This document shows positions 57,472-63,620 of a stretch of DNA of 64,000 nucleotides, one piece after another (within the stretch, counting starts at the first letter, position 1; every line of letters starts with the position of its first letter). The translations under genes were made by a program, and so were the position numbers. The DNA is taken from positions 40,280 through 104,279 of the forward strand of contig JAJEBW010000021.1 in assembly GCA_022822325.1 (NCBI GenBank). Reading direction: 5' to 3'. The notes under the pieces were generated by a model, which worked only from the letters and a program-made list of their open reading frames with translations, did not search any database and was not told where the DNA came from. This DNA comes from Gemmatimonadota bacterium. Its GTDB lineage: Bacteria; Gemmatimonadota; Gemmatimonadetes; Longimicrobiales; Gaopeijiaceae.

Positions 57472-57839
57472 ACTGCGTCGCGCCTCCGTCGCGCCATGGA
57501 GAATGCGGTCGCCCAACCCGGAAATTGTGCGCGTCGGCGGCGCCCGAGAGATGCGGGCCAACCGAATCCCGCCCGGCCACCCTGGCCGACCGATCCGGCC
57601 ACGCCGCCCGCACGGCATCCGCCGAGGAGGCCAAATCGGCGGAATTCGCCGTCTCCCGCCCCACCCGCCCCCGCCCCCGCGTCCACCCCCGCCCTGTTCC
57701 CCACGCCGCGCGGATGGCAAGATTCCTGCATCGTGCCGCCGTTTCCATCTGCGGGCCGCGTCCCCCCGGGCCGCGCCGGTGCCGCCCGCGCCCCGATCCG
57801 GCCACATTTTCACCCGCGACTCCCTGCTTCATCCGTAAT

Positions 57840-57865
57840 TTCTTCACCCCGCTTCTTCACCCCGC
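57840..57865 (+). repeat. Perfect 13-bp tandem repeat x2 (ttcttcaccccgc) 54 nt upstream of the lon ATG
   Basis: Read directly at 57840-57852 and 57853-57865. Confidence 0.8.
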
Positions 57866-57918
57866 GAACCCTTGCAACCCCCCAATCATTCAGCCCAACC
57901 ACCAAGGAACAGGATTTC

Positions 57919-60468
57919 ATGAGCAGAAGACGATTCAGCCTGCCCGTTCTTCCCCTTCGCGATACCGTCGTCTATCCGGGAGTGGCCGTGCCCATCTCGG
58001 CGGGACGGCCCGGCACGGTGGAGGCGGTTCAGGAAGCGCTCGACGCCGACCGGAGGCTCTTCGCGGTCGCGCAACACGAAAACCAGGACGAACCCGATCC
58101 GCGCATCCTCTACCCGGTGGGCACGGTGGTGCGGATCATTCAGACGCACCGGGTACGCGGAGGAATTCAGCTTCTGGTCCAGGGCGAGCAGCGCGCCCGG
58201 GCCCTCGAATACGCCGACGACGGCGAGGCGATGCTGCGCGCCACCCTGGTCGCCATCAAGCGCCAACCCCCCGTGGACAGCGACGATCCCGGGTTCCGCG
58301 CCCTCGACCAGGAGCTCCGGGAACGCGCGGCGGAGCTCGGAACGCGCCGGGGAGTGTCGGCCGAGGCGCTCAACCAGCTTATCCAGGGGGTGGACGAACC
58401 GGGGGCCTTCGCCGATCTGGTGGCCTTCTACCTGGATCTCCCGACCTCGGAAAAGCAGGAGATTCTCGAAACGCTCGACGACGAGGAGCGCATGCGGTCG
58501 GCACTGCTGGCGGTGGAGCGCGAGCTGGCCAGCATCGAGGCCCACGAGGACATCCAGGCCAAGGTGCAGGAAGAGCTGGGCGAGCGTCAGCGCGAGATGA
58601 TTCTGCGCGAACAGATGAAGCAGATTCGCAAGGAGCTGGGCGAAGAGGGCGAACGCGAGGATGCCGACGATCTGCGCGAGCGAATTGCCGAGATGGAGCT
58701 TCCCGAGGTCGCCCGCAACGAGGTGGAGCGCGAACTCCGCCGCTTGAACCGAACCTCGCCGCAGTCGGCCGAATACCAGGTCATTCGCACCTATCTGGAC
58801 TGGATCATCGAGCTGCCCTGGAGCGAGCGCACCGAGGACAAGCTCAACCTGCACCGCGCCGGGGAAATCCTGGACGAAGACCACTACGGCCTGGAGGATG
58901 TGAAGGACCGCGTGCTCGAATTCCTGGCCGTGCGCAAGCTGCAGCAGGAACGTTTCGGCGAGGGTCAGGAGAAGGAGGAAGCGAAGGCCGGGGAAGAGGA
59001 ACGCCGCGGGGATTGGGAGACGCTGTTGCTTGAGGGCGGCGAGGACGGCGCCGGCACGGAGTCCGCGGCCGAAGCCGACGAGAGCGACGAGGACGCCGAA
59101 GGGCTTCCGGAGCGCCGGGGACGCGGACCGATCCTGCTCTTCGCGGGACCGCCGGGGGTGGGCAAGACGAGCATCGCGCAGTCGATCGCGCGGTCGGTGG
59201 GACGCAAGTACGTGCGCATCTCGCTGGGCGGCGCGCGCGACGAGGCCGATATCCGCGGTCACCGCCGCACCTATGTGGGGGCCATGCCGGGGCGAATCAT
59301 CCAGGGAATGAAGGAAGCCGGAACCCGCAACCCCGTCTTCCTCCTGGACGAGGTGGACAAGCTGGGCGTCTCCTTTCAGGGCGATCCGAGCTCGGCGCTC
59401 CTCGAGGTTCTCGACCCGGCGCAGAACTCGACCTTCATCGATCACTACATGGGGGTGCCCTTCGATCTCTCGGAGGTCCTCTTCATCGCGACCGCCAACT
59501 ACGAGGACCGGATCCCGGCGCCGCTCCTGGACCGAATGGAATCGGTGGAGTTTCGCGGCTACACCGAGCAGGAAAAGCTGGAAATCGCCCGCCGCTACCT
59601 GCTTCCGCGGCAGATGCGCGATTCGGGTCTCCGCGACGAGGAGCTGGTGATCGGCGACGAAGCGATCCTGGGCGTGATCCAGAGCTACACGCGCGAGGCG
59701 GGGGTCCGGCAGCTTGAACGGGAGCTGGGGAAGCTGGCGCGCAAGGTGGCCCGGAGTATCGCGTCGGAGGAGAGCGAGGGGATGACGATCACCGCCGATT
59801 CGGCCCGGGATCTGCTCGGCCGGCCGCGGGTCTTCCCGGAGCGGCGGGCGGCGGAGGATGCCGTCGGGGTCGCCACGGGGATGTTCTACACTCCGATGGG
59901 CGGCGACATCATGTTTGTCGAAGCCAGCGTGATGCCGGGCGAGGGAGGGCTGGTCCTCACCGGGCAGTTGGGCGATGTGATGAAGGAGTCGGCCCGGGCG
60001 GCGCTCTCCTACGCGAAGAGCCACTGCGATGCGCTGGGAATCGACGAAAGCCTGCTCGAGAAGCGCGAGATCCACATTCATGTGCCGGCGGGCGCGATCC
60101 CGAAGGACGGACCCTCGGCGGGAATCACGATGGCGACGGCGCTGATCTCGGCGGTCTCGGGGCAGCGGGTGCGCGCCGATGTGGCCATGACCGGCGAGCT
60201 CACGCTGACGGGCCGCGTCCTGCCGATCGGCGGGGTGAAGGAGAAGGTGCTCGGCGCCGTGCGGGCGGGGATTCAGGAGATCGTTCTGCCGCAGGACAAC
60301 GAATCGCACCTGGACGACCTGCCCGACGAGGTGCGCAAGGCGCTGACGGTCCACCTGGTCGAGGATCTGCACCGGGTGGTCGAGCTGGCGATCCGGCGGC
60401 GACCGAAGAAGGCGCCCAGGACGCGCGCCGCGGTGCGCACGGAGGAGGTGTCGCCGATTCAGGCCTGA
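57919..60468 (+). CDS. lon: ATP-dependent Lon protease (LonA) with an acidic ~55-60-aa insertion before the Walker A motif
   Basis: Track ORF 57496..60468, start at ATG 57919 ([21 protein letters not shown]). Walker [10 protein letters not shown]. Protease Ser in PKDGPSAG, Lys in GGVKEKV. Confidence 0.95.
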
Positions 60469-60537: not shown

Positions 60538-61602
60538 CTACGCGACGACCTCGATCCGGCCCGCCCGCCCCGCCCCCACCCCCCCGATCACGGCTCCCGT
60601 CTCGCCCCGCGCGGCCAGCTCCCGCAGCAGCTCCGGCGTGCGCCCGGCCGCGATCGCGATCAACAGTCCCCCCGAGGTCTGCGCGTCGGCCAGCAGAATC
60701 CGGGTCGCTTCCGGCACGCCCGGGTCGTGGTTCACGCGGGAGGCCGAATCGGCTCGGTTGCGGCGCGTCCCCCCCGGCACATGCCCGGCCGCGATCAGCC
60801 CCGCCACCCCGCCCATCGCCGGAACGGCCCCCGCCTCGATCCTCGCGCTCGTCCCCGACGCGGCCATCATGTTGCCCAGGTGGCCGGTCAGGCCGTAGCC
60901 CGTCACATCGGTCGCCGCCCGCGCGCCCGCGGCCACCGCCGCCCCGGCCGCGCCCCGGTTCAGCCGCGCCATCGTCCGCACGGCCTCCTCCAGCACCTCC
61001 TCCGGGCAGGCGCCCGCCTTCACCGCGGTGGCCACGATCCCCGATCCCAGCGGCTTGGTCAGAACCAGATCGTCGCCGGCCCGCGCGCGGTCGTTGGCCA
61101 GGATGGCCGCGGGATCCACCTCGCCCACCGCGACCATTCCGTACTTGGGTTCGGGATCGTCGATCGAGTGGCCGCCCAGCACCGGAATTCCCGCCTCGGC
61201 CGCCTTCTCGGCGCCGCCCCGCACAATCTCTTCGGCGATTCCGTGCGACAGCAGCTTCCTCGGAAAGGAGAGCAGATTGAGCGCGAAAAGCGGGCGTCCC
61301 CCCATCGCGTAGACATCGGAGAGGGCATTGGCGGCGGCGATCCGCCCGAAGTCGCGGGGGTCGTCCACGATCGGGGTGAAGAAGTCGAGGGTCACGACCA
61401 GGGCCCGCCCCTCGTCGATCCGGTACACGGCGGCGTCGTCCCTCGTGGCGGCGTCCACCAGAACGCGAGGGTCGTGCGCGGGCAACAGGTGACGCAGAAC
61501 CTGCGCCAGCTCGGACTGGCCGAGCTTGCAGGCTCACCCGGCGCCGTGCGAAAGGGTGCTCAGCCGGATTCGGGGACGCTGGTCGCGCGGTTCGCTCTTC
61601 AT
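60538..61602 (-). CDS. selD: Selenide, water dikinase (selenophosphate synthetase), selenocysteine-containing (TGA at 61534-61536 read as Sec)
   Basis: The track ORF stops at 61485 only because of an in-frame TGA. Reading the same frame from ATG 61602 gives MKSEPRDQRPRIRLSTLSHGAG-U-ACKLGQSELAQVLRHLLPAHDPRVLVD... This aligns with E. coli [25 protein letters not shown], so Sec replaces Cys17. There is no other stop in the extension. Confidence 0.9.
61508..61526 (-). promoter_or_regulatory. Candidate bacterial SECIS hairpin downstream of the selD UGA
   Basis: The mRNA reads UGA GCCUGCA AGCUCGG-CCAGU-CCGAGCU GGCG. This forms a 7-bp perfect stem with a 5-nt loop containing GU, starting 8 nt after the UGA. 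Confidence 0.6.
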
Positions 61603-61722
61603 GGCCCCGAATCTAGCGAACGGCCCGGAGAGGGGAATCCCGGGGCGGCCGAACCCGGCCCGCGAGTCCCCCGAATGCGGTTCAAGGTTTACAGGGCGGC
61701 GCGCGGTGCCCATGCTTCAATC

Positions 61723-62553
61723 ATGAACACGCCGGCCTGGTCCACACGGAAGGATTTCGCCCGCGAAGTCGAGCGCCCCGACGACGAGCTGAACCTCGCG
61801 CGGGCCGCCCTCCTCGTGGCGCGGGAGGAGTATCCGCAGTTGCCGGTGGAGCGCTACCTGGTCCGCCTCGACATGCTGGCCGAGGAGACGCGCAACCGGC
61901 TCGGAACGGAGCGGGGGCCGCCGGTGGTTCTGGGCGAGGCGCTGGCCAATCTCTTCGGGAACCGCAAGCTGCGCGGCAATCGCAAGCGGTACAACGACCC
62001 GCGCAACTCCTTCCTCAACGATGTGCTGGACCGCGGCCTGGGGATTCCGCTCACCCTCTCGGTCGCGCTGCTCGAGGTGGGCTGGCGACTCGATCTGCCG
62101 CTGGAGGGGGTGGACTTTCCCGGTCACTTCATGGTCCGCTACCGGGGCGTGGCGGCCACCTTCCTGATCGACCCCTTCCACAGCGGCAAGGTGCGTCTGG
62201 AGTCGGAGGCGCAGGAGCTTCTGGATCGGCGGCATGGCGGAGTGGTGCGTCTGAAGAAGCGCCATCTGCGCACCGCGTCGCGCCACGACATGATTGTGCG
62301 GCTGCTGCTGAATCTGAAGGGGATCTATCACCGGTTGCGCGATCACAAGCGGGCGCTGGCCGTGGTGGAGCGCATTCTGATCGTGCGGCCGACGGCGCCC
62401 TCGCAGATCCGCGACCGCGGCTACCTGCTGGCCCGGCTGGGACGCGCCGAGGAAGCCGTGACCCAACTGGAGACCTACCTGAGCTTTGCGCCCGGCGCCC
62501 GCGATGTGCAGCGCGTGGAGGCGCTGGTGCGCGAGCTGAAGAGCCGGCCGTGA
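61723..62553 (+). CDS. SirB1/YchA-like protein (transglutaminase-like N-domain plus TPR)
   Basis: C-terminal part of track ORF 60727..62553. Start at ATG 61723, or ATG 61675 (MRFKVY...). ...NSFLNDVLDRGLGIPLTLSVALLEVGWRLDLPLEGVDFPGHFMVRY is typical of this family. Confidence 0.75.
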   Translation: MNTPAWSTRKDFAREVERPDDELNLARAALLVAREEYPQLPVERYLVRLDMLAEETRNRLGTERGPPVVLGEALANLFGNRKLRGNRKRYNDPRNSFLNDVLDRGLGIPLTLSVALLEVGWRLDLPLEGVDFPGHFMVRYRGVAATFLIDPFHSGKVRLESEAQELLDRRHGGVVRLKKRHLRTASRHDMIVRLLLNLKGIYHRLRDHKRALAVVERILIVRPTAPSQIRDRGYLLARLGRAEEAVTQLETYLSFAPGARDVQRVEALVRELKSRP

Positions 62554-62612: not shown

Positions 62613-63620
62613 ATGGCGAGGCCGGCGAGGGAAGTGCGCCACTACGGCGACCCCGGGCGGGAATACCGGGCGGCGGTGGAGGGGTGCGGGGTGGTGGCGC
62701 GGGACGACCGGCGGCTGGTGCGGGTGTACGGGCGGGCGCCGGCGCAAATGCTGAACGGGATCGTGACGAACCGGATTCCGGATGCCCCGGTCGGCGGGGT
62801 GGGTGATGCCGCCTACGGGACGATCCTGACCGCAAAGGGCCGAATGGTCACCGACCTGGTGACGCTCTGGTTGGGGGCTGGCGGCGGGGAGGGGGTGGGG
62901 CTGAATCTCTCGGCGCGTGGGATGGAGGCCGCGTTGGGGCACTTCAAACACTTCCTCCCACCAAGAATGGCAAGGGCCGAGGAGCTGGCCGAGCGCACGC
63001 AACTCCTGACGGTCGTGGGTCCCGGCGCGGGCGAAGCGGTGGCGTCGGTCTTTGGCACGGTGCCGGAGGATGGATTTCAACTGGTGAATGGGGGGCCGCT
63101 GGAGGGCGGCGCGCTCGTCGCACGGGGGTTGCGCCAGATCGATTCCTGGGATTTGTGGACGAGCGCGGCGGGAGCGGAGGAGGCGTGGGACGGTCTGCGC
63201 GGCGCCGGCGCGTGGCCGGTGGGCGCGGGCGCATGGCAGACGTTGCGCGTGGAGGCGGGCTTTCCGGAGTTCGGGATCGACATGGACGCCGCGACCATCC
63301 CCATCGAGGCGGGCCTCGGCGAGTGCGCATTCGATCACGACAAGGGTTGCTATACCGGCCAGGAGGTGATTGTGCGAATTCGCCACCGCGGCCGCGTCAA
63401 CTGGTACCTGCGTTCGTTGCGCTTCGGCGAGGTTGCGGCGCGGCCGGGAATGCAGCTCTTCGAGACGGGGGGCGCCAAGGTGCGCGGCCGCGTGACTTCG
63501 GTGGCCGATTCGCCGCGCTTCGGCCAGGTGATCGGGCTGGGCTATGTGCGCCGCGAGGTGGAGGTCCCGGCGAAGTTGCGGCTGGGGAGCGGGGCGGGGG
63601 CGGAGGTGGGGGTGCGGTGA
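62613..63620 (+). CDS. ygfZ: Folate-binding YgfZ family protein (aminomethyltransferase fold)
   Basis: 335 aa. Signature KGCYTGQE. GcvT-like N-terminal region. Confidence 0.8.
   Translation: MARPAREVRHYGDPGREYRAAVEGCGVVARDDRRLVRVYGRAPAQMLNGIVTNRIPDAPVGGVGDAAYGTILTAKGRMVTDLVTLWLGAGGGEGVGLNLSARGMEAALGHFKHFLPPRMARAEELAERTQLLTVVGPGAGEAVASVFGTVPEDGFQLVNGGPLEGGALVARGLRQIDSWDLWTSAAGAEEAWDGLRGAGAWPVGAGAWQTLRVEAGFPEFGIDMDAATIPIEAGLGECAFDHDKGCYTGQEVIVRIRHRGRVNWYLRSLRFGEVAARPGMQLFETGGAKVRGRVTSVADSPRFGQVIGLGYVRREVEVPAKLRLGSGAGAEVGVR

Follow-up and report, generated by a model that had tools for sequence, protein, structure and literature searches.

The SelD proteins of Aquifex aeolicus and Haemophilus influenzae naturally carry selenocysteine (Sec), and the structure of the former (PDB 2yye/2zod) was reportedly solved as a Sec-to-Cys variant. 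In SelD of Escherichia coli, Cys17 and Lys20 are essential for activity. Among bacterial selenoprotein families, SelD ranks second in breadth of distribution, after FdhA (PMC1794560, PMC13188914). Here we describe the selD gene in a 64,000-nucleotide (nt) stretch of DNA (the window) from an uncultured Gemmatimonadota bacterium (assembly GCA_022822325.1, contig JAJEBW010000021.1, positions 40,280 to 104,279). The gene almost certainly encodes a Sec-containing SelD (Sec-SelD), with Sec in place of the E. coli Cys17 in the catalytic N-terminal loop. The fuller statement, that it is a Sec-SelD in which SelB would bind the second (H2) of two adjacent hairpins downstream of the Sec codon, is in our judgement very likely.

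The selD coding sequence lies on the minus strand (61602-60538) and consists of 354 codons, with a single in-frame UGA read as Sec, followed by a TAG stop codon (60540-60538). In the list of open reading frames (ORFs) made with translation table 11, selD is opened only at a TTG (61485-61483, minus strand), which is not the biological start and gives a truncated product of 315 amino acid residues without the catalytic loop. The frame extends upstream to an ATG (61602-61600, minus strand), the methionine of which is kept in relatives; a stop codon found two codons upstream of it in five relatives (L025, L030, L031, L033 and L037) establishes this ATG as the start. The UGA (61536-61534, minus strand) is in frame, 22 codons after the ATG, and specifies residue 23. 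When TGA is read as U a protein of 354 residues is obtained, with no other in-frame stops, the N-terminal part of which is MKSEPRDQRPRIRLSTLSHGAG-U-ACKLGQSELAQVLR... and which opens, over a longer stretch, with MKSEPRDQRPRIRLSTLSHGAG-U-ACKLGQSELAQVLRHLLPAHDPRVLVDAATRDD.

The read-through protein scores 380.3 bits against the NCBIfam equivalog model for selD, TIGR00476 (cut-off 125), and 361.8 bits against a second equivalog, NF002098 (cut-off 299), and contains the Pfam domains of SelD, AIRS (PF00586, 108.5 bits) and AIRS_C (PF02769, 52.2 bits). The alignment with E. coli SelD (PDB 3u0o) covers residues 11-350 (E 4.6e-79) and places U23 opposite Cys17 and K26 opposite Lys20 of the E. coli SHGAGCGCK loop. 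The corresponding glycine-rich catalytic loop, SHGAG-U-ACK (residues 18-26; 61551-61525, minus strand), is invariant in relatives. The predicted activity of the protein is ATP-dependent synthesis of selenophosphate from selenide, and no second selD copy is present in the genome. An earlier sequence-only reading of the window had stated that the ORF track cuts selD at 61485, that the frame extends to the ATG at 61602 to give an N-terminus containing SHGAG-TGA-ACKLG, and that the TGA occupies the position of E. coli Cys17; the table-11 list, the translation and the 3u0o alignment, respectively, agree with these statements.

The UGA is also conserved as a coding position. Forty related genomes were drawn, including 24 from the same genus, eight from a sister family (f3) and eight from a second family (f2), and selD was present in all 24 genomes of the genus and in all eight of the sister family. 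The 33 selD copies in these 32 genomes, which range down to 60% protein identity, each contain exactly one TGA, at the same codon, and no other stop. The peptide upstream of the UGA, DQRPRIRLSxLSHGAG, is conserved in the relatives, and the 22-codon N-terminus is kept as protein. The closest public relatives are metagenome-assembled genomes (MAGs) labelled Longimicrobiales or Gemmatimonadota. A further 80 more distant loci were examined for the type of selD codon, and in the 60 genes that could be classified the active-site codon was TGA in 43 and TGC or TGT in 17.

These data bear on the alternative that the TGA is a genuine stop, selD being either a pseudogene or expressed as a truncated protein from TTG 61485 next to a separate 22-codon ORF. 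This is the picture that table-11 ORF calling yields, and TGA is the commonest stop codon of the genome; a disabling stop, however, would not have been retained at one codon position throughout the 33 copies of the 32 related genomes and dozens of further lineages, nor would the 22 codons upstream have remained conserved at the protein level. The truncated SelD would be without the residues of the glycine-rich loop that align with E. coli Cys17 and Lys20, and it would be the sole SelD of a genome in which selA, selB, tRNA-Sec and about eight genes with a UGA are retained. The conservation of the UGA across relatives and other lineages, and that of the upstream peptide in the relatives, cannot be explained by a pseudogene or by a start further downstream, and we give a genuine stop almost no credence. 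The family models, the 3u0o alignment and the conservation of the UGA are all in accord with the proposal in the sequence-only reading that SelD is itself a selenoprotein and that its Sec takes the place of Cys17; the relatives retain both the glycine-rich loop and the UGA, and do not start downstream of the TGA.

In one of the genomes (G011), two near-identical selD copies were found (C1:110646-111704 and C3:2983288-2984346), each 90% identical to the query and each with the TGA, reflecting either a duplication or assembly redundancy. Family f2, which belongs to the same order (its genomes are within G025-G039), gave no selD match in seven of its eight genomes and only a weak match of the AIR-synthase type in the eighth; the selenium trait may have been lost in this family.

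The genome that contains the window is 94% complete and encodes the machinery for Sec insertion, as the sequence-only reading had expected from the selD gene. A search of the genome found selA (474 bits; SelA and Se-cys_synth_N domains), selB (289 bits; contig C28, about 49.7-51.6 kb) and selC, the tRNA-Sec gene (79.7 bits against the Rfam model; called by ARAGORN as tRNA-SeC with anticodon tca (UCA)). SelB contains the domains GTP_EFTU, Beta-barrel_SelB, SelB-wing_2 and SelB-wing_3, and its winged-helix domains are of the type that binds SECIS (selenocysteine insertion sequence) RNA. These genes and selD are unclustered and spread over three contigs (C16, C47 and C28); a tRNA scan of the window found none, the tRNA-Sec being on a different contig. 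In the 94%-complete genome no selenouridine synthase gene (selU/mnmH, TIGR03167) was detected, and Sec is therefore the selenium trait identified in it.

TGA is the stop codon of 301 of the 476 high-confidence long ORFs (63%), more than any other, and the genetic code is therefore not reassigned. An alternative is that a standard amino acid (Trp, Cys or Gly), and not Sec, is inserted at the UGA of selD, either by a suppressor tRNA or under a reassigned code. In bacteria, near-cognate Trp-tRNA and Cys-tRNA read through UGA at a low level, which could supply some Cys- or Trp-SelD. Against this stand the use of TGA to terminate most confident long ORFs, the presence of selA, selB and a tRNA-Sec with anticodon UCA in the same genome, and the finding that the UGA codons of the candidate selenoprotein genes described below lie only at redox or catalytic Cys positions. 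Decoding as a standard amino acid is accordingly a highly improbable explanation, and insertion of Sec remains the preferred one.

The consensus for bacterial SECIS elements used here, which a 2026 review gives for the bSECISearch model (PMC13188914), has an apical loop of 3-9 nt and a stem of 4-16 bp. It further calls for a G within the first two loop positions, a distance of 16-37 nt from the UGA to the loop and a minimum free energy (MFE) of -7.5 kcal/mol or lower (PMC13188914). Two adjacent hairpins follow the UGA in selD. The first, H1 (AGCUCGG-CCAGU-CCGAGCU; 61526-61508, minus strand), has a 7-bp stem that starts at the eighth nt after the UGA and a 5-nt loop, and on its own folds at -10.0 kcal/mol (z -3.3), with one of 200 shuffled sequences being as stable. 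The second, H2 (GGCGCAG-GUU-CUGCGUC; 61507-61491, minus strand), abuts H1 and has a 7-bp stem and the triloop GUU (61500-61498), which is separated from the UGA by 33 nt; the folding energy of H2 is -8.6 kcal/mol (z -4.3). H2 agrees with the consensus in all four respects considered (a 3-nt loop, GUU; 7 bp; 33 nt; -8.6 kcal/mol). H1 agrees with it in its 7-bp stem, 5-nt loop and energy, and departs from it in two respects, having no G in the first two loop positions and a UGA-to-loop distance of 14 nt.

Conservation of the two hairpins was assessed in a gap-free alignment (A1) of 73 Sec-type selD genes, 41 from Gemmatimonadota and 32 from other phyla, spanning UGA-3 to UGA+48. In H2, 91% of the cells are paired and six of the seven pairs show compensatory double changes, for example GCGCAG/CUGCGC, GCCCAG/CUGGGC, GCUCAC/GUGAGC and UUCGCAG/CUGCGAA; at least six of the seven pairs are present in 39 of the 41 Gemmatimonadota genes and in 26 of the 32 from other phyla. 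The H2 loop opens with GU in 71 of the 73 genes, and H2 is the sole helix that RNAalifold predicts from the alignment. In the Cys-type selD genes (n = 17), the H2 stem retains on average only about 3.9 of seven pairs. For H1 the corresponding values are 85% of cells paired, compensatory double changes in four of seven pairs, and at least six pairs in 39 of 41 Gemmatimonadota genes and 16 of 32 genes from other phyla; its loop sequence is variable (CCAGU, CCAGG, CCGGG, GAUAG, CUCGU and others). Shuffle tests (n = 500) were applied to the H1 and H2 structure as a whole: on four of five measures the observed score was reached by none of the 500 shuffles, and the number of pairs changed on both sides was reached by one.

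The synonymous sites of the gene show the same trend in 36 Gemmatimonadota selD genes, which are related and thus not independent. Synonymous entropy reaches its minimum within the gene over the 12 conserved codons directly following the UGA (0.55 versus 1.13 bits, Mann-Whitney p 2.5e-4), and codons within the hairpin stems are frozen (CTC 36/36, GAG 36/36, GCG 29/29 and CAG 34/34). The rare codon CGT, which makes up 4.8% of Arg codons genome-wide, is retained in 30 of the 36 genes at the position in the 3' arm of H2 where it closes the hairpin, while the third position of the H2 loop is free (1.56 bits).

Based on these comparisons, H2 is the probable SelB-binding SECIS. The sequence-only reading had proposed H1 as the SECIS: the sequence and position that it gave for this hairpin are correct and the hairpin is conserved in the clade, but its loop and spacing depart from the consensus as described and H2, which was overlooked and lies partly outside the interval named in that reading, is the better candidate. 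H1 is probably an accessory or spacer hairpin and not the SelB site.

Several points weigh against the assignment of H2 and, more generally, against Sec insertion as described. The H2 stem overlaps a conserved peptide, AQVLR, which is itself typical of Sec-type genes, so that cause and effect are not fully separable between pairing and peptide constraint. The H2 spacing of 33 nt is near the upper limit of the consensus, and the other candidate SECIS elements in the genome are closer to their UGA codons (16-26 nt, and 18 nt in fdhA). The sequences used for the covariation analysis are related, and the shuffle statistics therefore overstate significance. Neither hairpin is matched by a curated Rfam family: a search of the whole window at gathering thresholds gave no matches, and when the threshold was relaxed to E 10 for 61440-61620, the only matches were at chance level (E >= 1.7; a Brucella small RNA, a long non-coding RNA and a small nucleolar RNA). 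In two Gemmatimonadota Sec-type genes (L075:1534-1587 and L078:1534-1587) H2 is absent (one to two of seven pairs, loop GCG) and the H1 position is occupied by AGGUCC-GGC-GGACCU; in these genes and in the Acetomicrobium example of BSepDB the sole good hairpin is at the H1 position and has a G-rich triloop. Finally, that Sec is inserted at the UGA in this uncultured organism is something we infer from its genes.

The hairpins of L075, L078 and Acetomicrobium suggest that the H1 site is able to serve as a SECIS in some lineages, and the position of the SECIS seems to differ between these and the rest. They also favour, as predicted SECIS elements at the H1 position, an alternative in which the window gene is a Sec-SelD but the SECIS is H1, alone or at the top of an extended hairpin with the UGA in its lower stem, an arrangement known from E. 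coli fdhF, with H2 being a by-product of the AQVLR peptide. H1 is more stable than H2 (-10.0 versus -8.6 kcal/mol), the extended form is the MFE fold of the free mRNA, the H1 pairing is well kept in the Gemmatimonadota, four of its pairs show double changes, and the Leu codon CTC of H1 is used in 36 of 36 genes despite a preference for CTG. However, the H1 loop is without a conserved G in its first two positions and, at 14 nt after the UGA, falls short of the 16-37 nt range; outside the Gemmatimonadota, in this register, H1 is found in 16 of 32 Sec-type genes versus 26 of 32 for H2, and RNAalifold does not predict it from the full set. As for the extended form, most sequences have breaks in its lower stem, which shows hardly any covariation. 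We consider a SECIS at H1 in the window gene to be unlikely, and H2 is retained as the candidate SelB site.

The extended hairpin (61535-61497, minus strand) consists of a lower stem, 61535-61528 paired with 61504-61497, beneath H1; the GA of the UGA is part of it, and its formation excludes that of H2. It is the MFE fold of 61536-61489 (-25.1 kcal/mol) in the genome of the window. Across the alignment its lower stem is 77% paired, with two pairs broken in most sequences and one pair showing a double change, and the extended hairpin was therefore rejected as a conserved element.

A Gemmatimonadetes MAG (L054:1531-1584) carries a Cys-type selD (TGC) that encodes the peptide ELAQVLR and has all seven pairs of H1, with H2 decayed to five of seven. 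It seems that Sec was recently converted to Cys in this gene and that the SECIS persists as a fossil, as has been described (PMC1794560).

The proposed mechanism follows the pathway known from bacteria. With UGA 61536-61534 in the ribosomal A site, SelB-GTP carrying Sec-tRNA(Sec) would be tethered through its C-terminal winged-helix domains to the SECIS in the coding sequence just downstream, and would deliver Sec while competing with RF2. The element bound by SelB would be H2, with its GU-initiated triloop. H1, between the UGA and H2, would have an accessory role, either taking up the long spacer or pausing the ribosome where the mRNA enters its channel. Since the genome has a sole selD, synthesis of SelD would depend on its own product, and priming would have to come from enzyme that is inherited or from miscoding of the UGA at a low level, an idea that comes from the general literature.

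A more elaborate scheme, which we offer tentatively and think doubtful, is that the selD genes of this clade contain a two-state, two-hairpin recoding device. The extended H1 hairpin would sequester the UGA and the 5' arm of H2 until the ribosome melts the lower stem, whereupon H2 would present its GU loop to SelB, and H1, folded at the mRNA entrance, would shorten the effective 33-nt spacer or pause the ribosome; the position of the SECIS would be mobile between the H1 and H2 sites across lineages.

The sequence-only reading had also anticipated that the genome would encode more selenoproteins and that other split ORFs would prove to be UGA-recoded. At least seven further candidate selenoprotein genes, split or truncated by table-11 calling, were found, encoding FdhA, two AhpC/TSA proteins, two OsmC proteins and two AhpD-like proteins. 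Six came from a codon-usage scan for TGA codons with coding signal on both sides, followed by Pfam searches. The threshold of the first scan was too strict and selD itself was missed because of poor codon usage around its UGA; the thresholds were then relaxed. The list is a lower bound, fdhA also having been missed by the scan. In each of the six genes a single Pfam domain spans the one in-frame TGA, which occupies a redox Cys position, and a SECIS-like hairpin follows 16-26 nt downstream. They encode two AhpC/TSA proteins (C29:39138-39836, minus strand, Sec context WUPYC; C49:82115-82705, minus strand, GUT), two OsmC-like proteins (C20:154806-155363, minus strand, AATAGU; C32:25495-26145, minus strand, AATGGU) and two CMD/AhpD-like proteins (C4:21277-23088, plus strand, CFYU; C42:19977-20837, plus strand, CRYU). 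The OsmC UGA is retained in all 30 of the other genomes of the genus: the matches to the OsmC-like query, which cover both paralogues, have the TGA in all but one marginal match (E 3.6e-4).

The seventh gene encodes a formate dehydrogenase alpha subunit, FdhA (Sec context NCSRA-U-HAPTV), and is cut by the end of contig C8 (L128:1735-1803); a NuoF-like gene precedes it. Its SECIS-like hairpin, GUCGCC-GGUCU-GGCGGC, lies 18 nt after the UGA and is similar to that of E. coli fdhF. The GGU at the start of its loop would be common to H2 if the closing G-C pair of H2 opens.

OsmC-like selenoproteins are known. Peroxiredoxin and Prx-like oxidoreductases have been listed among selenoproteins (PMC1794560), and BSepDB names the AhpD-like proteins among its selenoprotein families; OsmC is not mentioned in its text.

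Five other scan candidates were rejected after their translations were inspected. The translation of C12:19225-21840 appears to contain the last part of a membrane permease and, after it, sequence that looks non-coding, and that of C45:26699-28030 has the look of two adjacent genes in the same frame, of the MotA/TolQ/ExbB and ExbD types as judged from the translation. The candidate on C25 is a spurious GC-rich frame, the one on C33 is a contig-end fragment, and the one at C12 +88032 runs in frame into the start of the following gene, apparently that of a DNA methylase.

No selenium-related gene is found among the three neighbours of selD in the window. A Lon protease gene (57496-60468, plus strand), the likely start of which is the Met of MSRRRF inside the listed ORF, is convergent with selD. 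On the other side, a gene for a transglutaminase-like/TPR_9 protein (61718-62553, plus strand) is divergent from selD across an intergenic region of roughly 115 nt, and is followed by a gene for a GCV_T/YgfZ-like folate-binding protein (62613-63620, plus strand).

The main value of these findings is in annotation. Sec-SelD is an ordinary, well-known type of selenoprotein that gene callers routinely truncate, and here standard ORF calling leaves the sole selD of the genome without its catalytic loop and at least seven more genes split or truncated; metabolic reconstructions of these uncultured Gemmatimonadota would consequently miss the selenium dependence and part of the redox defence. The distribution of Sec-SelD gains a lineage, while the understanding of selenocysteine decoding is unchanged. 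A search of the literature for Gemmatimonadota selenoproteomes found no specific description in the papers covered, which is a gap in coverage and not a conceptual novelty. That the hairpin nearest to the UGA is not the phylogenetically conserved, consensus-like SECIS, and that two hairpins are adjacent, may be of modest interest for the modelling of bacterial SECIS elements.

Compared with E. coli SelD (3u0o), the window protein has the same family, fold, SHGAG-x-xCK N-terminal loop and Lys, but Sec (U23) in place of Cys17; the E. coli gene has neither a UGA nor a SECIS. A close counterpart for the RNA element is E. coli fdhF, in which, too, the UGA is followed within the coding sequence by a hairpin whose apical loop contains G and U; we take its sequence to be ...GCA-GGUC-UGC..., beside ...GCAG-GUU-CUGC... 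in H2. The fold of the free selD mRNA in the window, like that of fdhF, buries the UGA in a lower stem. The two differ in the UGA-to-loop distance, which is 33 nt for H2 and about 18 nt in fdhF, and in the separate hairpin H1 (19 nt) that fills the interval in selD; no bulged U is evident. The likeness is greatest to the Sec-containing SelD proteins of other bacteria, with which the window gene shares the UGA-encoded Sec at the same loop position, an intragenic SECIS after the UGA and a machinery that needs its own product, and from which it differs only in the host lineage, the uncultured Longimicrobiales-like Gemmatimonadota, and in the local arrangement of two hairpins after the UGA.

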